From contig CAWEYY010000002.1 of assembly GCA_963813435.1 (NCBI GenBank), positions 554,793 to 618,792 of the forward strand: a stretch of 64,000 bases of DNA, read 5' to 3'. Position numbers and translations under genes: made by a program. The notes beneath the pieces were generated by a model. That model made no database searches. It was not told where the DNA came from and saw only the letters and a program-made list of their open reading frames with translations. This DNA is from an uncultured Actinomycetes bacterium (lineage in GTDB: Bacteria; Actinomycetota; Thermoleophilia; Gaiellales; Gaiellaceae). Positions 4,628-64,000 of the stretch are shown one piece after another. Positions within the stretch are counted from its first letter, which is position 1; the number at the start of each line of letters is the position of its first letter.

Positions 4628-6169
<1,542 letters not shown>

Positions 6170-14232: not shown

Positions 14233-15350
14233 GATACGTCGACGAGTTCCGCGACGGGGAGCTTGCGCAGAAGCTCGCGCGCGAGATCGAGACGCTGGTC
14301 GAGCCCGGCCGAGAGGTGAAGATCATGGAGGTCTGCGGCGGCCACACGCACGCGATCTACAAGCACGGCGTCGAGCACCTCGTCCCGCGCGAGGTCGACT
14401 TCGTCCACGGCCCCGGCTGCCCGGTCTGCGTGATTCCGATGGGACGGGTGGACGACGCGATCGCCCTCGCCGAGCGGCCCGAGGTGATCTTCGCGACCTT
14501 CGGCGACATGATGCGCGTCCCCGGCGGCCGCGGCTCGCTGCTGGAGGCGAAGGCCCGCGGAGCCGACGTGCGCATGGTCTACTCGCCGCTGGACGCGCTC
14601 GAACTGGCCCGGCGGAACCCGGACCGCGAGGTCGTCTTCTTCGCGATCGGCTTCGAGACGACGGCACCCGCGACAGCGTTGACACTGCTGCGGGCCCGAG
14701 CCGAGGACGTGCGCAACTTCTCGGCCTTCTGCAACCACGTGACGATCGGGCCTCCGCTGCGCGCGATCCTCGACTCGCCCGGCCTCCGGCTCGACGCGTT
14801 CATCGCTCCGGGCCACGTCTCGACGGTGATCGGCACGCGGCCGTACGACTTCATCGTCGACGAGTACGGCAAGCCCGTGGTCGTGACCGCCTTCGAGCCG
14901 CTCGACATCCTGCAGGCGGTGGTCATGCTGCTGCGCCAGTTGCGCGAGGGCCGCTGCGCGGTCGAGAACCAGTACACGCGCGTCGTGCGTCGCGACGGGA
15001 ACCCGCGGGCGCTCGCCGCGCTCGAGGAGACGATGGAGCTCCGCGACACGTTCGAGTGGCGGGGCCTCGGCTGGATCGAGCGGAGCGCGCTCCGTCTTAG
15101 GCCAGAGCTCGCCGACTGGGACGCCGAGGCCCGCTTCGAGCTACCGGGCAACCGCGTCGAGGACCCGAAGGCCTGCCAGTGCGGCGAGGTGCTGATCGGC
15201 GCGATCAAGCCGTGGGAGTGCCGCGTCTTCGGCACCGCCTGCACGCCCGAGCGGCCGATCGGAACCTGCATGGTCTCGAGCGAGGGCGCCTGCGCGGCCT
15301 ACTACAACTACGGGCGCCTCGCCCGGCCGCGCGACACCGTGACTGCGTGA
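14229..15350 (+). CDS. hypD: hydrogenase maturation protein HypD
   Basis: 373 aa. Motifs MEVCGGHTH, GPGCPVCV and CMVSSEGACAAYY. Confidence 0.9.
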   Translation: MRYVDEFRDGELAQKLAREIETLVEPGREVKIMEVCGGHTHAIYKHGVEHLVPREVDFVHGPGCPVCVIPMGRVDDAIALAERPEVIFATFGDMMRVPGGRGSLLEAKARGADVRMVYSPLDALELARRNPDREVVFFAIGFETTAPATALTLLRARAEDVRNFSAFCNHVTIGPPLRAILDSPGLRLDAFIAPGHVSTVIGTRPYDFIVDEYGKPVVVTAFEPLDILQAVVMLLRQLREGRCAVENQYTRVVRRDGNPRALAALEETMELRDTFEWRGLGWIERSALRLRPELADWDAEARFELPGNRVEDPKACQCGEVLIGAIKPWECRVFGTACTPERPIGTCMVSSEGACAAYYNYGRLARPRDTVTA

Positions 15351-15447
15351 GACGACGCTTGCGGAGTCTCCTTCAGGCCGGGCAGGCTTTGCCTGCTCGG
15401 CCGTCTGAACCGACCGATCGACACGTTTGCCGTCAGGAGCTCCCGCC
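15351..15447 (+). repeat. 97-nt intercistronic structured element, copy A (hypD-hypE)
   Basis: Aligns without gaps to 59314-59410 and 63333-63429 (both minus strand). The first hairpin starts inside the TGA. Long GC hairpin at 15372-15409. ATCGACAC core (GGTCGACAC in the other copies). AGGAG Shine-Dalgarno at 15435-15439. Confidence 0.8.
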
Positions 15448-16476
15448 GTGAGAAGAAGGCCGAGGCTCACGGATGAGGTCGTCACGCTTGCGCACGGCTC
15501 CGGCGGGAAGGCGACACGCGCGCTCGTCGAGAGCCTCTTCCTCGAGGAGCTGGGCAATCCGCTGCTGGAGCCGCTCGGCGACTCGGCGCTGCTCGAGCTG
15601 AACGGCTCCCGGATCGCGTTCACGACCGACTCGTACGTCGTCAAGCCGATCGTCTTTCCCGGCGGGGACATCGGCGAGCTCGCCGTGAACGGAACCGTGA
15701 ACGACCTCGCCGTCGCCGGTGCGACGCCGGTCGCGCTCTCGGCGGGCTTCGTCGTCGAGGAGGGCTTCGAGGTCGCCGAGCTGAGGCGCCTCGTCGCCTC
15801 GATGGCGCGCGCGGCCGAAGCCGCCGGAGTGGCCGTCGCAACCGGCGACACGAAGGTGGTCGAGCGTGGCAAGGCGGACGGGCTCTACGTGAACACGGCC
15901 GGGATCGGCCTCGTGCCTTCCGGGGTGGAGCTCGGCGCCGAGCGGGTGCGGGTCGGCGACCGCGTGCTCGTCTCGGGCACCCTCGGGGACCACGGCATGG
16001 CGGTGATGATCGCCCGCGGCGAGCTCGCGCTCGAGGTCGAGCTCGAGAGCGACACCGCCCCCGTGCACGAGCTCGCCGCGTCGCTGCTCGAGCTCGGCGG
16101 GGCCGTCCGCTGGCTGCGCGACCCGACCCGCGGCGGGCTCGCGACCGCGCTCAACGAGCTGGCGCAGGACGCGGAGCTCGCGGTGGCGCTGGAGGAGGCG
16201 GCCCTTCCGCTGCGGCCGACCGTCGTCGGCGCCTGCGAGATCCTCGGGATCGACCCGCTCTACGTCGCCAACGAGGGGAAGCTCGTCGCGGTGGTCGCGC
16301 CCGAGGCCGCCGACGACGCGCTGGAGCGCCTTCGCGGACACGAGCTCGGCGCCGAGGCGGCGATCATCGGCGAGATCCGGGCCGAGCCGGAGGGGCTTGT
16401 GCTGCTCGACACGGCGTTCGGCGGCAGCCGGATCGTCGACATGCTCGTCGGCGACCCGTTGCCCCGAATCTGCTGA
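15448..16476 (+). CDS. hypE: hydrogenase maturation protein HypE
   Basis: AHGSGG N-terminal motif and C-terminal PRIC. GTG 15448 preferred, 8 nt after AGGAG. The track ORF starts at TTG 15427. Confidence 0.9.
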   Translation: MRRRPRLTDEVVTLAHGSGGKATRALVESLFLEELGNPLLEPLGDSALLELNGSRIAFTTDSYVVKPIVFPGGDIGELAVNGTVNDLAVAGATPVALSAGFVVEEGFEVAELRRLVASMARAAEAAGVAVATGDTKVVERGKADGLYVNTAGIGLVPSGVELGAERVRVGDRVLVSGTLGDHGMAVMIARGELALEVELESDTAPVHELAASLLELGGAVRWLRDPTRGGLATALNELAQDAELAVALEEAALPLRPTVVGACEILGIDPLYVANEGKLVAVVAPEAADDALERLRGHELGAEAAIIGEIRAEPEGLVLLDTAFGGSRIVDMLVGDPLPRIC

Positions 16477-16480
16477 ACGG

Positions 16481-16498
16481 CTCGGAGCGTTTCCCGAG
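16481..16498 (+). terminator. short hairpin after hypE
   Basis: CTCGG-N8-CCGAG, starting 5 nt after the hypE stop. Confidence 0.3.
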
Positions 16499-16510
16499 AT
16501 CACGTCAAGA

Positions 16511-16584
16511 GTGTCGACCGGTCAGTGCAGACGGGAGCACGGGCTGGCCCGCGCTCCCTGACAACGGCGTCGCAAGCGAGCGCC
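16511..16584 (-). repeat. structured element, copy D (3' of the cytochrome c gene, no downstream gene)
   Basis: Its sense strand aligns without gaps to positions 1-74 of copies A, B and C. It shares CCGTCTG.AC.TGACCGGTCGACAC. Both hairpins are kept through compensatory changes. Confidence 0.7.
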
Positions 16585-17331
16585 TTACTTCAGCGTCTTG
16601 AGATAGGCGACGAGCGCCTTCAGGTCCTGGTCGCTGAGGATCCCGCCCCAGTGCGGCATGCTCACGATCGGTGCCTTGCCGATCACGCTGCCGCTGCGGA
16701 TCATGTCTGTGATCTTCTTGTCGGTGTTGAACTCCGCCCGGAAGTCGGCCCCCGTGAGCGGCGGGATCGCCTTGTCCTCCGAGAGCGGGTTCGGCACTCC
16801 GCCGAGGCCGTTCGGGCCGTGGCAGTTGATGCAGCCGTCCCGCACGTAGAGCGCCGCGCCCGCGACCTCGAGCCCCTGGCCCTGCGGCACTGTCGGTGGC
16901 GATGCGTCGGGAACGCTCGGCAAGCCTGCATGGATGTAGGCGACGAGCTGGTCCACCTGCCGCTTGGAGATGACCGCCCCCCAGACGGGCATGTACGGCT
17001 TGGTCGGGTTCGCAGACTCGCCGAGACCGTGGTTGATGATCTGCTGCAGCTGCGCGGATGTAAGCGCCTTGCCCACGGTCTTGAGCCCGGGCACGTCCGG
17101 CGAGACGCCGCCTTGCCCGTTGTCGCCGTGGCACTGGGCGCAGGCGAACTGGACGAACACGTGCGCGCCCGCGGCCACCTTCGGGTCGACGGGAGCTGCC
17201 GAGGCCGTCGTTGCCGCGCCGACCGTCTTCGTCTTCTTCGTGTAGTGGCCCGCGCCCCAACCGATCAGGCCGGCCACCACCACGAGCAGGACGACGACAA
17301 TAGCGCCGACGGCGAACAACCGGTTGCTCAC
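16585..17331 (-). CDS. membrane-anchored dihaem cytochrome c
   Basis: 248 aa. N-terminal TM helix and two CxxCH motifs (CAQCH, CINCH). Confidence 0.85.
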   Translation of the reverse strand: MSNRLFAVGAIVVVLLVVVAGLIGWGAGHYTKKTKTVGAATTASAAPVDPKVAAGAHVFVQFACAQCHGDNGQGGVSPDVPGLKTVGKALTSAQLQQIINHGLGESANPTKPYMPVWGAVISKRQVDQLVAYIHAGLPSVPDASPPTVPQGQGLEVAGAALYVRDGCINCHGPNGLGGVPNPLSEDKAIPPLTGADFRAEFNTDKKITDMIRSGSVIGKAPIVSMPHWGGILSDQDLKALVAYLKTLK

Positions 17332-34453: not shown

Positions 34454-37282
34454 TTACGGGGAAGCACCGATTCGCCGGCGGTGCCAGCGGCGGAGTTCGT
34501 CGGTACCCCAGACGATCACTGGAAACACGGCCAGCAGGAGCAGATCGGTCGCCGGGAGCGGCCTCGTCCCGAAGACGGCCTGGAATGCCGGCACGTAGAG
34601 GAGCGCCGCCGTGAACACCAGCTCGAACGCGATCCCCCACAGCAGCGCGCGGTTCGACCAGACGCCGACCGAGCGAAGCGAAGCCTTCGACGTGCGCGCC
34701 GCGAATGCGGTCCCCACCTGGCAGGCGACGATCCCGGCGAAGGTCATCGTCGTCGCCTGGAGGTAGACGTGGTGCAGCGAGCTGCCGACGGCCACCGAAT
34801 CACCCGGCGACCAGCCGGCGCGGAGGAGGACGAAGAAGAAGCCGCCCATCACGAGCCCGGCCGAGATCCCGCCCATGAAGCCCCAGGCACGGACGAGCAG
34901 CTCCCGGCTGATCACTCCTTCGCGCGGGCTGCGCGGCGGCCGCTCCATCAGGCCGGGCTCCGCCGGCTCCTGGCCCAGGGCAAGCGCGGGCAGGGTCTCG
35001 GTGCCCAGGTCGATCGCCAGGATCTGGAGAACGGTCAGCGGCAACGGCACGGCGCCGCCCGAGAGCGCAAAGACGAGGAACGGTACGACCTCGGGAGTGG
35101 CGTGGGCGAAGATGTAGAGGATGAACTTGCGGACGTTGTCGTAGACGCGGCGTCCAGCCTGCACCGCGACCACGATCGTGGCGAAGTTATCGTCGGTCAA
35201 CACCAAAGTCGCCGCCTGGCGCGCGACCTCCGTCCCGCTCTGTCCCATCGCGACGCCGATGTCGGCGCGACGGAGCGCGGGCGCGTCGTTCACCCCGTCG
35301 CCGGTCATCGCCACGACCTCGCCCTCGTCGCGCAGCGCGTCCGCGATCCGGAGCTTCGCTTCGGGTGAGCTGCGCGCGAACACGAGCGCGGGCTCGGTGC
35401 GGAGCAGCTCGCCGAGAGCCGCGTCGCTCAGACGGTCGAGCTCCCGGCCCGTGACCAGCCGGACGCCGTCGCCGACGATCCCGACCCTCCGGGCGATCGC
35501 GACTGCGGTCGGGCCTGCGTCGCCCGTGATCACAACGACGCGAATGCCCGCGCCGTAGCAGCGCGCGACGGCCTCGGCCACCTCGGGGCGCGGCGGGTCG
35601 AAGAGGGCGACGAGCCCGAGGAAGACGAGGTTGCGCTCGACGTCCTCGCGCTCCTCCGGGAGCGGAGTGCCGGCGGGCAGACGCGCCGTGGCCGCCGCGA
35701 GGATCCGCAACCCCTCCCCCGCCCAGCGCTCGCTGCGATCGAGGATCGACTTCCGCTCGTCGGCGGAGAGCGGCCGCTCCGCTCCGTCGGTGCCGAGAAT
35801 CAGCTCGCAACGATCGAGCGCCTCCTCCGGCGCTCCTTTCACGTGGACGTACAGGCCGTCAGGCCGCTCGTCGATCGTGGACATCAGCCTCCGCTCCGCA
35901 TCGAAGTGGAACTCCTTCTTTCGCCCGGACTCGCGCGTTGCGAGCGTGACGTCGGCTCCGAGGAGCGCTGCGGCCCTGAGCAGCGCAAGCTCGGTCGGAT
36001 CGCCCGCATCGGGACCGAGCTCCGCGTTGTTGCACGCCGCGAGCGCCTGCGCGAGCCTCTCTAGCGGAGCCGGGACACGTGAGGGTGCGGCTGAGGCATC
36101 GCTTGCGATGCCGGCATCAGGACGCGCGGGCTCTGCCTGTGCGTCCGTCTGAAATGACCGGTCGAAACGAGCGAGCTCATCCGAAGCCGCCACTGAGAAC
36201 TCGCCGGCATCCGTCCAGACCGCTGTCGCCTGCATGCGGTTCTCGGTCAGCGTCCCCGTCTTGTCCGTGCAGATGACCGTCGTCGAGCCGAGCGTCTCGA
36301 CCGCGCTCAGCCGCTTGACGAGGGCTCCCGAGCGCGCAAGCGCGCGGACGCCGACCGCCAGCGCAAGGGTGATCGTGGGCAGCAAGCCCTCCGGCACGTT
36401 GGCGACGATGAGGCCGATCGCGAACGTGAGCGCGTCGGCTGGAGGAAGCCCGGCGACGAGCGCCCCGAGCGGGAAGAAGACGAAGCCGGCCGCAACGGAG
36501 ACACCAGCGATCAGCCAGGCCACCCGCTTGACCTGAACCTCGAGGGGACTCTCCTCGCGTCGGACCCGCTGCGAGAGCGCCGCGATCCTCCCGAGCTCCG
36601 TGCGCATCCCGGTCGCGACCACAACGGCCCGCGCCTCCCCGCCGATGCAGGCGCTGCCGCTGAAGACGAGGTCGCGCGCCTCCAGGGGCGGAGCCTGCGC
36701 GTCGACGAACTCCGCCGAGCGCGAGACCGGGACCGACTCGCCTGTCAGCGTGGAGACATCGACCTCGATCGCGCCCTCGAGCAGCCGTGCGTCGGCCGAG
36801 ATGCGGTCGCCCTCGGCAAGCAGAAGGATGTCGCCAGGCACGAGCAGTCGCGCCTCGATCACGGTGCGCCCGCCGTCGCGGAGGACGCTCGCGTGCGGCG
36901 GCAGGTAGCTCTCGAGCGCCTCCACGGCGCGCTCGGCCTGACGCTCCTGCAGGAAGGCAAACGCCGCGTTCAGGAGGATGACGCCGACGATCGCAGCCGC
37001 CAGCACGGCCGTGCCTGCAACCAGGGCCAGCAGGGCCGCGACCCAGAGGAGGAGCGCGAGTGGATGCGTCAGCTGGCGGGCCACCTCGCCGGGCCACCGC
37101 CGGCCGGAGGGACGGGCTAGCTGGTTGGAACCCTCGGTGAGCAGTCGCCGCTCGGCCTCGCGGCTCGACAGGCCCTCGGGGGTCGTCCGGAGATGTCGCA
37201 GCAGCAGGTCGGCAGGCTCGTGCAGCTCGAGGGTGGGGTCTCCGGAGTCGACTGCGGCACGGCCGTTCGTCTGTTGAGCCAT
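34454..37282 (-). CDS. P2-type cation-transporting ATPase (CtpF/Ca-ATPase-like)
   Basis: Motifs [15 protein letters not shown] and [11 protein letters not shown], with 10 TM helices. Start set at MAQQTNG; the track ORF extends to 37351. Confidence 0.9.
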
Positions 37283-37452
37283 CGCGTCCAGATCGTGTCG
37301 GCGCGGCCCATCCCGTCCATCGGGAGCACCGCGGATCACGGCTGCGCGCAACTACCGAATCCGTAGTTAGCCGAGCCGGGGATCGGCGAGCGGCCCGATG
37401 CCCCGGCCACGACACGCGAGAACGATGGGCGCAACACGACGAGGAGGACCCG

Positions 37453-38766: not shown

Positions 38767-38828
38767 GGAGGGGCCGCGCCTGCGCGGCCCCTCCATCCCC
38801 AGCAGAAGGCCGCCTCGGGCGGCCTTCT
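38767..38828. terminator. two consecutive perfect GC hairpins between convergent genes
   Basis: GGAGGGGCCGCG-CCTG-CGCGGCCCCTCC (38767-38794) and AGAAGGCCGCC-TCG-GGCGGCCTTCT (38804-38828). Confidence 0.6.
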
Positions 38829-38954
38829 TCGCACATGCGGCGATCTCGGCCGATTGCCGGCTTTCCAAGCGACGGTGTAACCCACTCAAGCCCGGAAGGC
38901 GGTCGCTTGCGACGCCGTTCAAGAGGCCGCGCCGGCTTGGCCGGTGCGGCCGTC

Positions 38955-39596
38955 TTACTTCTCGAGGAGCCCCAGGTCGAGGGCGTAGCGGACGAGCTCG
39001 GCGCGGCTCGAGAGGCGGAGCTTCTGCATGATGTGCGCGCGGTGCGTCTCGGCCGTGCGCACCGAGATGAAGAGCTGCTTGGCGATCTCCTGGTTGGTGT
39101 GCCCAAGCGCGAGGAGGCGCAGCACCTCCCGCTCGCGGTCGGAGAGCGGATCCTCCTCGGCCCGCCTGCGCTCCTCGGTCTCCGCCGCGACGAGCCGCGC
39201 GCCGAGCTCCGGGTGGACGTAGCGCCCGCCTCCCGCGACCTCCACGATCGCGGTCACGAGCTCCGAGTCGGCCGCCTCCTTGAGGACGTAGCCGCTCGCG
39301 CCCGCCGAGAACGCCTCGCGCACGTAGCGCGGGTCGTCCTGCATCGACAGCACGAGCACCTTCAGATCCGGGGTCTCGTGCAGCAACTGGGGGACGACCT
39401 CGAGCCCGCTCTGGTCGGGCATCACGACATCCAGCAGAACGACGTCGGGCTTGAGCGAGCGCGCCTCGAAGACCGCCTCGCGAGCGCTTCCGGCCTCGCC
39501 GACGGCCTCGAGCTCCGGCTCGGCGTCGATCAGGAGCTTGAGCCCGGCGCGGACGACCGCATGGTCGTCGACGATCAGGATCTTCGTCTTGCTCAT
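38955..39596 (-). CDS. NarL/LuxR-family response regulator (DosR/DevR-like)
   Basis: 213 aa. Receiver domain plus the LSDREREVLRLLALGHTNQEIAKQLFISVRTAETHR HTH. Confidence 0.9.
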   Translation of the reverse strand: MSKTKILIVDDHAVVRAGLKLLIDAEPELEAVGEAGSAREAVFEARSLKPDVVLLDVVMPDQSGLEVVPQLLHETPDLKVLVLSMQDDPRYVREAFSAGASGYVLKEAADSELVTAIVEVAGGGRYVHPELGARLVAAETEERRRAEEDPLSDREREVLRLLALGHTNQEIAKQLFISVRTAETHRAHIMQKLRLSSRAELVRYALDLGLLEK

Positions 39597-57758: not shown

Positions 57759-58936
57759 TCGAGCTCAAGTCCGACGTAGTTCTCGGCCAGGCTCGCGGCG
57801 GCCTCGCGTGAGGTCGCCACGTAGCGCAGCTGCGAGAGCTGGAGCTTCAGGTCGAACGCATCCCCGCCAGGGATGCGGTGGAGCATCGACGTCATCCACC
57901 ACGAGAAGTGCTCGGCCCGCCACACGCGGCGCAGGCAGGTGTCCGAGTAGAGCTCGAGCAGGTTCGCATCGCCCGTCTCGTACCAATGGACGAGCGCCTC
58001 GGCGAGCACCCGGATGTCGGCGATCGCGAGGTTGAGGCCCTTGGCGCCGGTCGGTGGGACGATGTGCGCGGCGTCGCCTGCCAGGAACAGCCGGCCGAAC
58101 TGCATCGGCTCGACGACGAAGCTGCGCATTCCGGTCACGCCCTTCTCGAGGATCGGGCCCTCCTCCAGCGTCCAGCCCTCGATGCCGAGGCGCTTCTGCA
58201 GCTCGGCCCAGATCTGCTCGTCCGACCACCCGTCGATGTCCTCGTCGGGCTCGCACTGGATGTAGAGACGGCTCAGGCTTGGTGAGCGCAGGCTCAGCAG
58301 CGCGAAACCGCTCTCGTTGTGCGCGTAGACCAGCTCGTCGCTCGACGGCGCGACCTCGGCGAGGATGCCGAGCCAGCCGAACGGATAGTCACGCGCGAAC
58401 GACTCGAGCACGCCCTCCGGAATGCTCGGGCGGCAGACGCCGTGGTAGCCGTCGCAGCCGGCGATCACGTCGCACTCGAGCTCGAGCCGCTCGCCGTCGT
58501 GGGAGAAGCGGATCCGCGGTTGCTCGGTGTCGAGCTCGTGGACGCTGACGTCGTCGACCTCGAAGAGCAGGGGCAGCTCGCTCTCGATCCGCGCGGCGAT
58601 CAGATCCTTGACGACCTCGGTCTGGCCGTAGATGACGATCGTCCGGCCGTCGGCGAGCTCGCTGAGCGGGATCCGGTGCCGCTCGCCGTCGAACTGGAGC
58701 TCGATCCCGTGGTGGACGATCCCCTCCTCGTGGAGGCGTCCGCCGACCCCCGCCTCGGTGAGCAGCTCGACCGTTCGCTGCTCGAGGACGCCCGCGCGGA
58801 CGCGGTGCTCGACGTAGTCGCGGCTGCGGTTCTCGAGCACGACCGATTCGATCCCGGCCCGCTCGAGGAGTCGCGCGAGCGTCAGCCCGGCCGGCCCGGC
58901 TCCGACGATGCCGACCTGCGTGCGGAGCGTCTTCAC
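57755..58936 (-). CDS. pobA: 4-hydroxybenzoate 3-monooxygenase
   Basis: 393 aa from VKTLRTQVGIVGAGPAGL, with GDAAHIVPPTGAKGLN. GTG in a GTGA overlap with pcaC. Split out of track ORF 57755-59320. Confidence 0.9.
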   Translation of the reverse strand: MKTLRTQVGIVGAGPAGLTLARLLERAGIESVVLENRSRDYVEHRVRAGVLEQRTVELLTEAGVGGRLHEEGIVHHGIELQFDGERHRIPLSELADGRTIVIYGQTEVVKDLIAARIESELPLLFEVDDVSVHELDTEQPRIRFSHDGERLELECDVIAGCDGYHGVCRPSIPEGVLESFARDYPFGWLGILAEVAPSSDELVYAHNESGFALLSLRSPSLSRLYIQCEPDEDIDGWSDEQIWAELQKRLGIEGWTLEEGPILEKGVTGMRSFVVEPMQFGRLFLAGDAAHIVPPTGAKGLNLAIADIRVLAEALVHWYETGDANLLELYSDTCLRRVWRAEHFSWWMTSMLHRIPGGDAFDLKLQLSQLRYVATSREAAASLAENYVGLELE

Positions 58937-59313
58937 TCCCCGTCGCCGGAGCCCGCGACCTCCTGGAAGACCGCGAACGCGCTGTTGGCCGCAGGGACGC
59001 CGCAGTAGACGGCCGTCTGGAGGAGGACCTCCTTGATCTCGTCGAGCGTGAGGCCGTTCCTCCGCGCCGCGCGGATGTGCATGCCGAGCTCGTCGAAGCG
59101 GCCGAGCGCCACGAGCGCGGTCAGCGTGATGCAGCTGCGCGTTTTGCGGTCGAGGCCCTCGCGCGCCCAGATCTCGCCCCAGGCGTAGCGCGTGATGAAG
59201 TCCTGGAAGTCGCGCGTCAGGTCGGTCGTGCGCTCGACCGCGCGGTCGACGTGCTCGTCGCCGAGCACCTCGCGCCGGATCTTCATGCCACGCTCGTAGG
59301 TTTCGTCGCTCAT
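58933..59313 (-). CDS. pcaC: 4-carboxymuconolactone decarboxylase
   Basis: 126 aa, carboxymuconolactone decarboxylase family pattern (YAWGEIWAREGLD...TAVYCGVPAA). Confidence 0.9.
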   Translation of the reverse strand: MSDETYERGMKIRREVLGDEHVDRAVERTTDLTRDFQDFITRYAWGEIWAREGLDRKTRSCITLTALVALGRFDELGMHIRAARRNGLTLDEIKEVLLQTAVYCGVPAANSAFAVFQEVAGSGDGE

Positions 59314-59410
59314 CGATCAACCTTCTGACGGAGAGCGTGTCGACCGGTCAGCTCAGACGGCCGGCCAGGCAGAGCCCGCCCGGCCTGAAGGAGACGAGGC
59401 AAGCGTCGTC
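59314..59410 (-). repeat. 97-nt intercistronic structured element, copy B (pcaD-pcaC)
   Basis: Fills exactly the stop-to-start gap. About 77 of 97 positions are identical to copy A by my count. GAAGG Shine-Dalgarno 7 nt before the pcaC ATG. Confidence 0.8.
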
Positions 59411-60155
59411 TCAGGACCGGACCTCCTGAAGCACGGCGGCCGTCACCGCGTCGGGTTGCTCCACGTTCGCCAGATGGGCCGCATGTGGAACGACGACCGT
59501 CTCGGCTCTCGGAATGCCCTCGCTCAGCGTCTCGACCACGTCGGCCTGTGTCACCGGATCCTCCTCGCCGACGATCACGAGCGTGGGCGTCTCGATCTCG
59601 TCCAGGCGGTCGCGGAAGTCGAAGGCGCCGATCGCCTCGCAGCAGCGGGCGTAGCCCTCCGGCTCGATCGTGAGCAGGTCATCGAGGTAGCTCTGCGCAA
59701 CCGGGGTGTCTCTGAAGCTCGGCGTGAACCAGCGCTCGCGCAGACGGTCGACGAGGGCACCCGTGCCCTCCTCGCGCACCAGCGCGGCCCGCTCGGCCCA
59801 CTCCTCACTCGTGCCGAGCTTCGCGCCCGTGCAACAGAGCGTCAGCGTTTCGATCCGCTCGGGCGCCATAGCGGCGAGACACATTCCGACCATCCCGCCC
59901 AGCGAGAGGCCGCAGAACGAGAACCGATCGCCGTCGATCAAGCTCGAGGACCGCGCATGCGATCTCCTCGACCGACACCGGCCCGTCGGGCACCGGCGAG
60001 TCGCCGTGGCCCGGATGGTCGTGGCGCAGGACGCGGAAGCGGGCGGCGAACGCGTCGAGCTGCGGCTCCCAGAGGCGTGTCGTCGTCCCGAGCGAGTTCG
60101 AGAGCACGAGCAGCGGCGCGTCTTCGGGGCCGTCGAGGCGGCGGGCGAGCTTCAC
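59411..60155 (-). pseudogene. pcaD: 3-oxoadipate enol-lactonase carrying a 1-nt frameshift
   Basis: The N-terminal 72 aa (VKLARRLDGPEDAPLLVLSNSLGT...AVLEL) are in one frame and the C-terminal 176 aa (IDGDRFSFCGLSLGGM...) in another. They join at 59940-59941. Confidence 0.75.
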
Positions 60156-62609: not shown

Positions 62610-63332
62610 CTAGCTCCGTCCTTTCGTTTTCAGGCCTCGAAGCGTGACGAGCTCCTCCTCGGTCGGCGGCTCGGTCTCGCCGAGCCCGTCCGCGACCCGG
62701 AGCTCCCAGCCGGTCGCCTCGTGTGCCTGGTCGACGCCGACACCCGGATGAAGCAGCGTCAACGTCAGCTCCCGCGTCTCCGGGTCCGGCTCGAGGATGC
62801 CGAGATCCGTCACGACCAGCTCGACCCGGTCGCCAACGCTCGTGAGGAAGTCGAGCTTCTCGACGAACGCGCGCGGGGTCTGCCTCAGCATCACGAACAC
62901 CTTCCTCGCGGCGGTCGCGATCTCGGGAGCGCCGCCGCCACCGGGGAGACGCACCTTCGGCGAGTCGTAGTCGCCGATCACCGTGCTGTTCAGGTTCCCC
63001 CACCGGTCGATCTGGGCGGCGCCGAGGAAGCCGACGTCCATGTGGCCGCCCTGCAGCCAGTAGGCGAACATCTCCGGAACCGACACGACCGAGTCAGCGG
63101 TCTCGGCCAGCTCGCCGTCGCCGATCGACAGCGGCAGCTCGATCGGCTTCGCGCCGATCGTCCCGCTCTCGTAGATGAGCACGCAGCCGGGCGCGTGCGT
63201 GGCCCGGGCGAGGTTGGCGGCGAGGCTCGGCAGGCCGATCCCGACGAAGCAGACATCACCGTCCGTCAGTCGCCGCGCGGCCTCGACGGCCATCATCTCG
63301 TCGGCTGTGTAGGTGACGGTCGACGTTGTCAC
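62610..63332 (-). CDS. pcaJ: 3-oxoadipate CoA-transferase subunit B (CoA-transferase family I)
   Basis: 240 aa. Pattern VCFVGIGLPSL...YESG...LPGGGGAPE. Function assigned from its position in the pca operon. Confidence 0.75.
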   Translation of the reverse strand: MTTSTVTYTADEMMAVEAARRLTDGDVCFVGIGLPSLAANLARATHAPGCVLIYESGTIGAKPIELPLSIGDGELAETADSVVSVPEMFAYWLQGGHMDVGFLGAAQIDRWGNLNSTVIGDYDSPKVRLPGGGGAPEIATAARKVFVMLRQTPRAFVEKLDFLTSVGDRVELVVTDLGILEPDPETRELTLTLLHPGVGVDQAHEATGWELRVADGLGETEPPTEEELVTLRGLKTKGRS

Positions 63333-63429
63333 AAGCCAACCTTCTGAAGGAGAACGTGTCGACCGCTCGGTTCAGACGGCCGCACGGGCAGAGCCCGTCC
63401 GGCCTGGAGGAGACGACACATGCGTCGTC
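63333..63429 (-). repeat. 97-nt intercistronic structured element, copy C (pcaI-pcaJ)
   Basis: Fills exactly the stop-to-start gap. Perfect 8-bp first hairpin and a 6-bp inner stem with compensatory changes relative to copy A. GAAGG Shine-Dalgarno 7 nt before the GTG. Confidence 0.8.
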
Positions 63430-64000
63430 TCATGCGGCCAGCACGTGCCTTTCCATCCAGGTGGCGAACTTGTCGCGGTCGCGGCTGATCGGATCCCAGG
63501 CCACGTAGAACTCGTTGTCGCGGTCGTAGTAGTTGGCCGCGTAGGAGGGGTGCGCACCGCGCGGCACGAGCGAGACCGCGCCGACCACCCAGCCGGGGAT
63601 CACGGTCGCGCCGGGCCGGGGCTCGAGCTCGTCGACGATCTCCTCGACGGTCACGATCGAGCGAGCCGACGCGAGGACGGTCTCCTTCTGGACGCCGAGG
63701 ATCCCCCAGAGCTGGACGTTCCCCTTCCGGTCGGCCCTCTGGGCGTGGACGATCCCGACGTCCGGCCGGTGCGCGGGAACCGCCGCGAGCTCCTCGTCCG
63801 TGAACGGGCAGGTGACCTTCCCGACCCGCGTGTGGGCCGCGAGGTCGCCGTGGCCGTAACCGCGCAGCACGCCGAACGGCAGGTTCGCCGCCCCGGCCGC
63901 GTAGGCGGTCGCCATCCCTGCGTGCGAGTGCTCCTCGATCTCGAGCGGCACCGGCCAGCCGTGCTCGACCGCGTCCCGGAGCCGGTGCAGAGAGCCGACC
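63430..64000 (-). CDS. pcaI: 3-oxoadipate CoA-transferase subunit A, 3' part; the gene continues beyond the right edge
   Basis: The frame stays open to the window end. The sequence ...LRGYGHGDL...VHAQRADRKGN... is CoA-transferase subunit A-like. Confidence 0.75.
   Translation of the reverse strand, partial: VGSLHRLRDAVEHGWPVPLEIEEHSHAGMATAYAAGAANLPFGVLRGYGHGDLAAHTRVGKVTCPFTDEELAAVPAHRPDVGIVHAQRADRKGNVQLWGILGVQKETVLASARSIVTVEEIVDELEPRPGATVIPGWVVGAVSLVPRGAHPSYAANYYDRDNEFYVAWDPISRDRDKFATWMERHVLAA

Follow-up and report, generated by a model that had tools for sequence, protein, structure and literature searches.

A dispersed family of small structured repeats in Gaiellales with a subtype at former NTGA stop/start overlaps between operon genes

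Introduction

Several kinds of small dispersed repeats are known, namely mycobacterial interspersed repetitive units (MIRUs), repetitive extragenic palindromic (REP) sequences, Rickettsia palindromic elements (RPEs) and repeats resembling MITEs (miniature transposable elements with inverted repeats). The present work describes a repeat family of the Gaiellales (Thermoleophilia, Actinomycetota), represented by copy A, which lies between hypD and hypE in a stretch of 64 kb from contig CAWEYY010000002.1. This stretch, called the window throughout, is ordinary chromosomal DNA with 70% GC. For the Gaiellales family itself no earlier description was found, and no paper mentioning Gaiella was among the top matches of a full-text literature search for such repeats.

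MIRUs are the closest counterpart. According to the accounts in PMC3184786 and PMC12548453, they are mobile and flanked by tetranucleotide repeats (Supply et al. 1997, cited therein), and they carry an internal small open reading frame (ORF) that overlaps the flanking genes at −4 nt and is thought to keep translational coupling. Both families consist of 40–100-nt repeats in polycistronic operons of Actinomycetota, have empty sites as well as filled ones with direct repeats of a tetranucleotide, possess an internal small ORF with −4 nt overlaps at both ends, and contain GC-rich internal inverted repeats; tandem arrays are present in both as well (here at the loci L018, L024, L014 and L040 of related genomes). 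In contrast to MIRUs, the host is a member of the Gaiellales within the Thermoleophilia, and the sequence appears unrelated, as judged without formal comparison. The Gaiellales element is also denser, with 7 copies in 64 kb as against the approximately 40–50 MIRUs per genome that have been reported, and it is additionally found at gene ends in either orientation and in frame within coding sequences (CDSs), mostly as single and not as tandem copies. The relation to MIRUs thus appears to be one of functional analogy and not of family membership.

RPEs are palindromic and insert in frame in unrelated genes (Ogata et al. 2000, cited in PMC3184786 and PMC10969869). The likeness to RPEs lies in palindromic repeats of about 100–150 nt placed in frame in unrelated housekeeping genes without destroying them (here copy E and the copies of loci L062 and L068). 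However, insertion into a CDS concerns a minority of the Gaiellales copies, most of which are intergenic and adjoin stop codons, and both host and sequence are unrelated.

With REP sequences and bacterial interspersed mosaic elements (BIMEs) the family shares abundant GC-rich imperfect palindromes after stop codons, between convergent genes and in operons, as well as strand-specific folding and the absence of terminal inverted repeats. Classical REP sequences comprise 20–40 nt and often occur in inverted pairs. The Gaiellales unit, on the other hand, is longer and composite (60–125 nt, with two unlike hairpins and a non-palindromic core), it shows no inverted-pair (BIME-type) arrangement, and besides a relay ORF it includes a start codon together with a Shine-Dalgarno sequence. 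Moreover, no gene for a REP-associated tyrosine transposase (RAYT) was found with approximate queries in the 1.35 Mb sampled. MITEs such as Chunjie of Geobacter (PMC10969869), and likewise the Correia and enterobacterial repetitive intergenic consensus (ERIC) sequences, resemble the family in being small, non-autonomous and multicopy with recent presence/absence differences, in sitting in an operon without breaking it and in being able to carry expression signals. Different from MITEs, there are neither terminal inverted repeats nor a cognate insertion sequence, and the flanking repeat is TGA or NTGA only. The coding capacity of the element is confined to an ORF of 34 codons.

Results and Discussion

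Junction copies and the repeat family

Copy A is a member of a large family of small (~60–125 nt), non-autonomous repeats in Gaiellales. In the window, copies were located by nhmmer and by a covariance model (CM) run with filters off; both searches agree on 7 copies, designated A to G, whose CM E-values range from 1e-34 to 7e-11, and neither gave any other credible match. The pattern of the conserved core matches 5 times in the window and 0 times in 100 dinucleotide shuffles. In the related genomes, one genome per species was scanned for this core, which led to at least 118 loci (L numbers); copy counts given below refer to the matches listed. At least 117 loci hold true copies, together at least 161 copies in 835 kb, and these originate from at least 58 species-level metagenome-assembled genomes (MAGs) labelled Gaiellaceae, Gaiellales, Actinomycetes or Actinomycetota, with L039, treated below, as the one exception in labelling. 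A single Terriglobia match among those listed is due to chance.

Copies A, B and C represent the junction subtype and occupy the following positions in the window:

15348–15451, + strand: copy A, lying between hypD and hypE and belonging to the junction ('GAC') subtype; CM score 110 bits, E-value 1e-34
15348–15350, + strand: TGA stop codon of hypD
15351–15447, + strand: spacer of copy A
15448–15451, + strand: GTGA, including the GTG start codon of hypE at 15448–15450
15347–15451, + strand: mini-ORF of copy A with 34 sense codons (VRRRLRSLLQAGQALPARPSEPTDRHVCRQELPP); its GTG overlaps the hypD stop codon and its TGA the hypE start codon
15349–15370, + strand: hairpin 1 of copy A, CTTG loop, beginning with the GA of the stop codon
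15372–15409, + strand: hairpin 2 of copy A, with the 12-bp GC-rich stem at 15376–15402 and a TTT loop
15403–15424, + strand: core of copy A, GTCTGAACCGACCGATCGACAC (family consensus GTCTGAAATGACCGGTCGACAC)
15425–15447, + strand: variable tail of copy A, with the hypE Shine-Dalgarno sequence AGGAG at 15435–15439
59310–59414, − strand: copy B with its mini-ORF (CTGA...ATGA), spacer 59314–59410; located by nhmmer/CM
63329–63433, − strand: copy C with its mini-ORF (ATGA...GTGA), spacer 63333–63429; located by nhmmer/CM

The three spacers of 97 nt each align without gaps, with identities of 77/97 (A/B), 73/97 (A/C) and 80/97 (B/C). The original prediction, which was made from the sequence alone, had described exactly these gapless stop-to-start spacers at three unrelated junctions, and its hand count of about 77 of 97 matching positions for A and B agrees with the alignment. 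The three copies it had described are real, whereas its total of three or four was too low; a covariance-model scan, such as it had proposed for the whole genome, yields 7 copies in the window, and the core scan the 161 or more copies of the relatives. Its statement that all copies lie in the same orientation relative to transcription applies to the junction subtype, while other copies are antisense, intergenic between divergent or convergent genes, or located inside a CDS.

Empty and filled sites

In relatives, the junctions filled by A, B and C are found without the element. The hypD-hypE junction is a bare GTGA or TTGA overlap in 10 relatives, whose HypE proteins are 71–91% identical to that of the window. 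Junction B is empty in L203 (...gcggcATGAgcgacgag) and L202 (...ccgcGTGAgcgacgac) and junction C in L203 (...gctgcGTGAcgacctcgac), the L202/L203 overlaps at the B and C junctions being ATGA or GTGA; in L204, which is 93% identical to the window, both the B and the C junction are filled. Insertion at an NTGA overlap makes the junction 101 nt longer, and both edges of the element are then bordered by NTGA, namely GTGA...GTGA in A, CTGA...ATGA in B and ATGA...GTGA in C. The exact 97-nt distance between stop and start is explained by an inserted element that has a fixed length and fills a former NTGA overlap. The family consists of dispersed, structured repeats with recent gains or losses; its junction copies are at former NTGA overlaps, and copy A is not a locus-specific regulatory RNA. 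A conserved cis-regulatory RNA of these operons is not supported, given the plain NTGA overlaps that relatives possess at all three junctions.

At B and C, the ancestral tetranucleotide corresponds to the 3′ NTGA and not to the 5′ one. A possible target-site duplication is the TGA or NTGA seen on both sides of junction copies, and the CTGAG on both sides of copy E. However, the two sides often differ in the base preceding TGA, and which triplet is present at the 5′ edge, TGA or TAA, depends on the subtype, so that the triplet may be carried by the element itself.

Copies D to G are not stop-to-start spacers:

16479–16591, − strand: copy D, 'GGC' subtype; CM score 73 bits
36088–36201, + strand: copy E, antisense inside a P-type ATPase gene (34454–37351, − strand); located by nhmmer/CM
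38891–39000, + strand: copy G, short subtype with hairpins 1 and 2 only; CM score 49 bits
6284–6399, + strand: copy F, diverged short subtype; CM score 38 bits

Copy D occupies the space that separates a dihaem cytochrome c gene, at whose TAA stop codon it begins, from the convergent hypE; it has no tail with Shine-Dalgarno sequence and start. Copy G adjoins the stop codon of an opposite-strand LuxR-type response regulator gene, and copy F lies upstream of an opposite-strand aldehyde dehydrogenase gene.

The ATPase reading frame runs in frame through the reverse complement of copy E, the boundaries of which were taken from blastn and from reading of the sequence. Thereby 32–33 residues are added just after the DKTGT motif in the nucleotide-binding region of the P-type ATPase. 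In an alignment with 23 homologues, this insert is found in the window protein and in one protein that is 99% identical, and it is absent from the rest, including proteins that are 95%, 93% and 88% identical. L119, which encodes the 95%-identical ATPase and whose DNA is 98% identical to the window over about 14 kb, is without copies E and G; L120 (94% identical) also lacks both, and L121 lacks copy G. Two further insertions are in frame in sense orientation and are read in the mini-ORF frame. One resides in a ThiF-family gene (L062, 4751–6220, − strand; ...ALPVHPSELTGR...), where the ThiF profile (positions 1–238) spans 271 residues across the insert, and the other in a maltokinase-like gene (L068, 1904–3526, + strand; ...ALPGRPSEVTGRH...). 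Altogether, about 3 in-frame CDS insertions are verified among about 168 copies (the matches listed plus the window).

The DNA immediately next to copy E (36061–36091 and 36195–36199) and copy G (38831–38890) differs strongly from the empty alleles of L119 and L120. This divergence is local, extending over 10–70 nt within surrounding DNA that is 94–98% identical, and some 60–70 nt before copy G have no counterpart. The response regulator beside copy G ends in DLGLLEK* as compared with DQGFLEE* in the empty alleles. Such flanks could be an imported recombination tract or could result from error-prone insertion; given their local divergence, recombination may have helped to spread filled alleles.

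Pfam scans of 40 ORFs in the window yielded no transposase or recombinase; housekeeping families only were matched, and 4 ORFs remained without a match. No split 'parent' copies flanking a gene were found. A tblastn search for an HUH/Y1 transposase gave no match in 1.35 Mb of Gaiellales DNA, a weak test in view of the approximate queries and of a sample that contained no complete genome. Terminal inverted repeats are absent, the 5′ end GACGTCGCTTGCG... not being complementary to the 3′ end ...GTCAGGAGGTTCGGCC.

The 34-codon mini-ORF, a proposed relay

In A, B and C, the +1 frame that begins with the N of the upstream NTGA continues through exactly 34 codons without a stop and ends at the TGA that overlaps the next start codon. 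The original prediction had tried only the frame obtained by reading through the TGA and had missed this one. Junction copies account for 48 of the 161 copies; all of them are in sense orientation and co-directional with both flanking genes, and the mini-ORF measures exactly 102 nt in 38 of the 48. The base before the upstream TGA produces ATG, GTG or TTG in 36/39 junction copies, while C is found there in 13/21 non-junction copies. The downstream start codon of junction copies is ATG in 29 cases, GTG in 17 and TTG in 2. Each of the two other frames is closed by TGA codons in the conserved GTCTGAAATGACC in 29/36 copies.

The modal spacing is kept by 37/41 junction copies, and three of the four deviants differ by −3, −3 and −6 nt. 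In contrast, this spacing is found in only 30/87 non-junction copies, a group in which changes of 1 or 2 nt are frequent. For the first, second and third codon position, entropy amounts to 0.35, 0.61 and 0.58, hence without an excess at the third position, and the last third of the peptide is near random apart from the purine-rich Shine-Dalgarno sequence. The length of the ORF is thus tightly conserved, whereas its peptide is not. Together with the hypervariable tail, the missing codon periodicity bears out the earlier claim that the constraint is structural and not coding.

Hairpins, core and tail

For the secondary structure, an explicit bracket structure was applied to 44 junction copies, de-duplicated and nearly gap-free in their alignment. 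RNAalifold predicts both hairpins in this set, and 88.7% of the cells pair as compared with 32–50% when the partners are slid. Compensatory changes occur at 14 pairs and 77 cells, and the observed values were matched by 0 of 500 shuffles. Helix 1 has 85% of its cells paired and compensatory changes at 4 pairs; for helix 3, the 12-bp stem of hairpin 2, the corresponding values are 94.7% and 8 of 12 pairs. Both hairpins had been proposed in the original prediction, one starting with the GA of the stop codon and the other as a long GC stem, and covariation now supports them. Its remark that no known RNA family has this layout is in line with the Rfam result: at gathering thresholds the whole window has no match, and a permissive search with copy A returned noise (E ≥ 0.6).

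The family consensus of hairpin 1 is a 9-bp stem with a CTTG loop; in copy A it is partly degraded, with 5 outer pairs and 2 loop-closing pairs being retained. Hairpin 2 consists of 12 bp closed by the TTT loop, to which a 4-bp outer stem (TTCA/TGAA) is added across a GTC bulge. In hairpin 2, 114 G·U pairs stand against 16 A·C mismatches, and the same bias is found in sense, antisense and gene-internal copies. Since it is the same in all contexts, the folding strand is a property of the element and not of the host mRNA. The family consensus contains G·T pairs at two positions, and inheritance from it may account for part of this bias. Folding of single sequences is unremarkable, with z-scores of −1.6 to −2.9 relative to shuffles and similar values for the antisense strand. 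A third stem between the conserved TCTGA and a tail TCAGA was predicted in copy C but was dropped because the tail motif is not conserved across copies.

The core GTCTGAAATGACCGGTCGACAC is the most invariant segment and is present in most subtypes; the spacing from CGTCTG to GGTCGA is identical in 122/123 copies. It contains two overlapping palindromes, GACCGGTC and GTCGAC, and places TGA stops in two frames beside an ATG in the mini-ORF frame, although this ATG is not universal (copy A reads GAACCGA). The core could be a protein-binding site, or a device that returns out-of-frame ribosomes to the relay frame. By contrast with the core, the tail is hypervariable (about 1.4 bits of entropy per site) at fixed length; it contains a purine-rich Shine-Dalgarno sequence, as had been predicted.

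Subtypes and genomic contexts

Every copy comprises a 5′ hairpin with CTTG loop directly after a T(G/A)A triplet, and the 12-bp GC-rich hairpin. In the junction subtype, hairpin 1 has the form TGA-GAC...GTC-TC, and the tail provides the Shine-Dalgarno sequence and start. The 'GGC' subtype, TAA-GGCGCC...GGCGCC, is devoid of that tail and is found in either orientation at the ends of genes, between neighbours that converge or diverge. As a candidate target-site duplication of this subtype, CTAAG- or CTAG-like motifs are found at both of its ends, but they are often unequal within one copy. The short subtype is reduced to the two hairpins (copies F and G, and the tandem array of L040 with its 63-nt period). 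Among the matches listed, 22 copies are antisense to both neighbouring genes and 15 lie in antisense-open frames, according to approximate flank-strand classes that required GC1 above GC2 (GC content at the first and second codon position).

Genes that end at the 5′ edge of an element use TGA in 43 cases, TAA in 11 and TAG in 1, compared with a baseline of 53%, 12% and 36%, respectively; TAA is enriched in non-junction copies (p ~2e-6). This skewed stop usage implies that the element either brings the T(G/A)A triplet with it or needs it as target.

Most copies are single, and direct tandem arrays are the only other arrangement seen. Such arrays occur at L018 (~1435–1640, − strand), L024 (1712–1920), L014 (1134–1340) and L040 (860–990), with periods of 102, 102, 103 and 63 nt. 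The mini-ORF relay is broken in the L018 array, which is a local duplication and not a pair of insertions because the final codons of the upstream gene belong to the duplicated unit.

In L052 (2213–2355) and L074 (~5570–5700), hairpin 2 is interrupted by a further GC-rich stretch of about 60–70 nt, which suggests nested insertion of another small repeat. The tails of non-junction copies (L008, L029, L083, L097 and L115) often end near CTAAG, CTAGA or TAGGAT/TAGACT, 6–8 nt before a GTG or ATG. These ends look like −10 boxes of leaderless genes, and some copies may carry or adjoin promoters. A true junction-type copy is also present in L039 (CAVRWY010000008.1, labelled Gemmatimonadales), a contig of 698 kb with 70% GC, and is nearly identical to that of L063 from an Actinomycetes MAG; either this doubtful label is wrong or the DNA has been transferred.

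Origin and tolerance of the element

We consider it likely that the family is a non-autonomous mobile element, the junction subtype of which is tolerated by rebuilding stop codon, relay ORF, Shine-Dalgarno sequence and start codon. Among the roles listed in the original prediction, a mobile REP/MITE-like insertion bringing its own ribosome-binding site is thus the one favoured by the evidence. The element would insert into the 4-nt NTGA stop/start overlap of translationally coupled operon genes, and the upstream gene would still end at TGA. Ribosomes finishing the upstream gene would re-initiate at the overlapping NTG on the relay ORF, the sole open frame through the element, and its translation would melt both hairpins. 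They would then terminate at the TGA overlapping the downstream start codon, and the downstream gene would be expressed by re-initiation, by fresh initiation at the Shine-Dalgarno sequence, or by both. The insertion would be nearly neutral, with only length- and frame-preserving copies persisting. With ribosomes being relayed through the element in this way, its length and its open frame would be under selection, whereas the peptide would not. The same reasoning has been put forward for MIRUs (Supply et al. 1997, as summarised in PMC3184786 and PMC12548453). The hairpins and the core, which are kept in all contexts and orientations, most likely serve the propagation of the element, e.g. through recognition by some enzyme, possibly as single-stranded DNA (ssDNA); as RNA, they may also stabilise or punctuate host transcripts.

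Several points weigh against this explanation. In copy B the mini-ORF opens with a poor start codon, CTG, and C is found at this position in 3/39 junction copies. The Shine-Dalgarno sequence alone could explain downstream expression. Compared with other copies, those at junctions are somewhat closer to their own consensus (85% versus 78% identity), so part of their low indel rate could reflect youth instead of selection. In addition, the in-frame fraction is inflated by the use of an in-frame ORF to define the junction class. About three operon copies are out of frame (L061, L117 and L044). Translation of the mini-ORF and maintenance of coupling are predictions from sequence, and the presence/absence differences of E and G could have arrived by recombination from another lineage and not by fresh transposition. 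Finally, as regards a mobilising mechanism, terminal inverted repeats, a transposase in the window, an HUH/Y1 match in the 1.35 Mb sampled and a split parent copy were not found.

How the element moves is connected with the chief competing interpretation of its origin, that of a REP-like or IS200/IS605-derived element moved as ssDNA by a Y1 (HUH) transposase such as RAYT, which would insert 3′ of a T(G/A)A target without duplication and bring its own terminal NTGA. This interpretation is compatible with the non-autonomous mobile element favoured above; as a specific claim we regard it as rather unlikely. It would account for the absence of terminal inverted repeats, for imperfect hairpins that are strand-specific whatever the orientation of the host gene (G·T being tolerated and A·C not), for the fixed 5′ triplet, which is TGA or TAA and almost never TAG, and for the 3′ rather than the 5′ NTGA being the ancestral tetranucleotide at B and C. 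It is at odds with the variable tail, which has no conserved right-end hairpin, with the inverted pairs of the much shorter classical REPs, which are not seen here, and, as far as that weak test reaches, with the negative tblastn result. That the strand-specific hairpins and the fixed 5′ triplet would fit a REP/IS200-like ssDNA mechanism offers no more than a lead. The wider proposal of a selfish element for compact, operon-rich genomes, which recognises T(G/A)A and above all the NTGA overlap and has an undescribed mode of mobility without terminal inverted repeats, possibly by hairpin-guided ssDNA, is likewise tentative, and its chances are put well short of even.

The same hairpins could be read as a cis-acting structured RNA selected for each operon, i.e. 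a processing or stabilising signal or a translational attenuator setting the ratio of the flanking gene products, with its spread being secondary. Strong covariation in two hairpins, frequent G·U and rare A·C pairs indicating that the sense strand folds, and the invariable sense orientation of junction copies between functionally paired genes (hypD/hypE, PcaD/PcaC-like, CoA-transferase A/B) would all suit such an RNA, and a stabilising effect on upstream mRNA segments is known for REP elements (cited in PMC3184786). It is nevertheless improbable: close relatives manage with a bare NTGA overlap at the same three junctions, identical hairpins and G·U bias recur in antisense, antisense-open-frame and CDS-internal copies, single-sequence folds are only modestly better than shuffles and similar on the antisense strand, and no Rfam family matches. 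Still less probable is a role between genes in intrinsic transcription termination or attenuation. A stable GC-rich hairpin does follow directly after stop codons, and several copies, e.g. copy D, lie between convergent genes; however, hairpin 2 is followed by the conserved GTCTGAA instead of a T-run, and copies also reside inside coding sequences. That the 34-codon ORF encodes a functional small protein, the repeats being paralogous small genes, is hardly credible despite the open frame in A, B, C and 38/48 junction copies and the recognisable peptide pattern RRRLR..LQA.RALP.RPSE.TGRH. Variability is not focused on third codon positions (the entropies given above), the C-terminal third is near random, those residues that are conserved fall on the stems and the core, and many copies have no start codon, are antisense, are frameshifted by indels or lie inside other proteins.

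As a non-autonomous mobile element, the family would be a second independent example of the MIRU strategy of colonising coupled junctions without breaking them, in the poorly studied soil lineage Gaiellales, and would unite MIRU-like, REP-like and RPE-like behaviour in one family. Genomes that are 93–98% identical carry different copies and hence offer many empty/filled pairs for the study of movement without terminal inverted repeats. If the selfish-element proposal were true, the recent activity seen between 98% identical genomes could reveal how MIRU-type elements move. The filled junctions are, furthermore, natural test cases for the reach of re-initiation across a structured spacer. For annotation, the repeats are a confounding factor in Gaiellales MAGs, leading to spurious small ORFs, mis-called starts and protein insertions; they could also be used as strain-typing markers.

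Neighbouring genes and other features

The flanking genes of the junction copies were assigned by Pfam. Copy A is preceded by HypD and followed by HypE (AIRS/AIRS_C), copy B lies between an alpha/beta hydrolase (PcaD-like) and a CMD-family protein (PcaC-like), and copy C between subunits A and B of a CoA-transferase. P0121, a homologue of the CMD-family protein encoded at 58933–59313 of the window, comprises 217 residues as against a norm of 126, owing to an N-terminal extension of about 90 residues, which may be a gene call reading through an element, or a fusion. At 38805–38830, beside the stop codon of the response regulator gene, the window contains a perfect GC-rich hairpin (agaaggccgcctcgggcggccttct) that is conserved in L119 to L121; it is terminator-like and unrelated to the repeat family.

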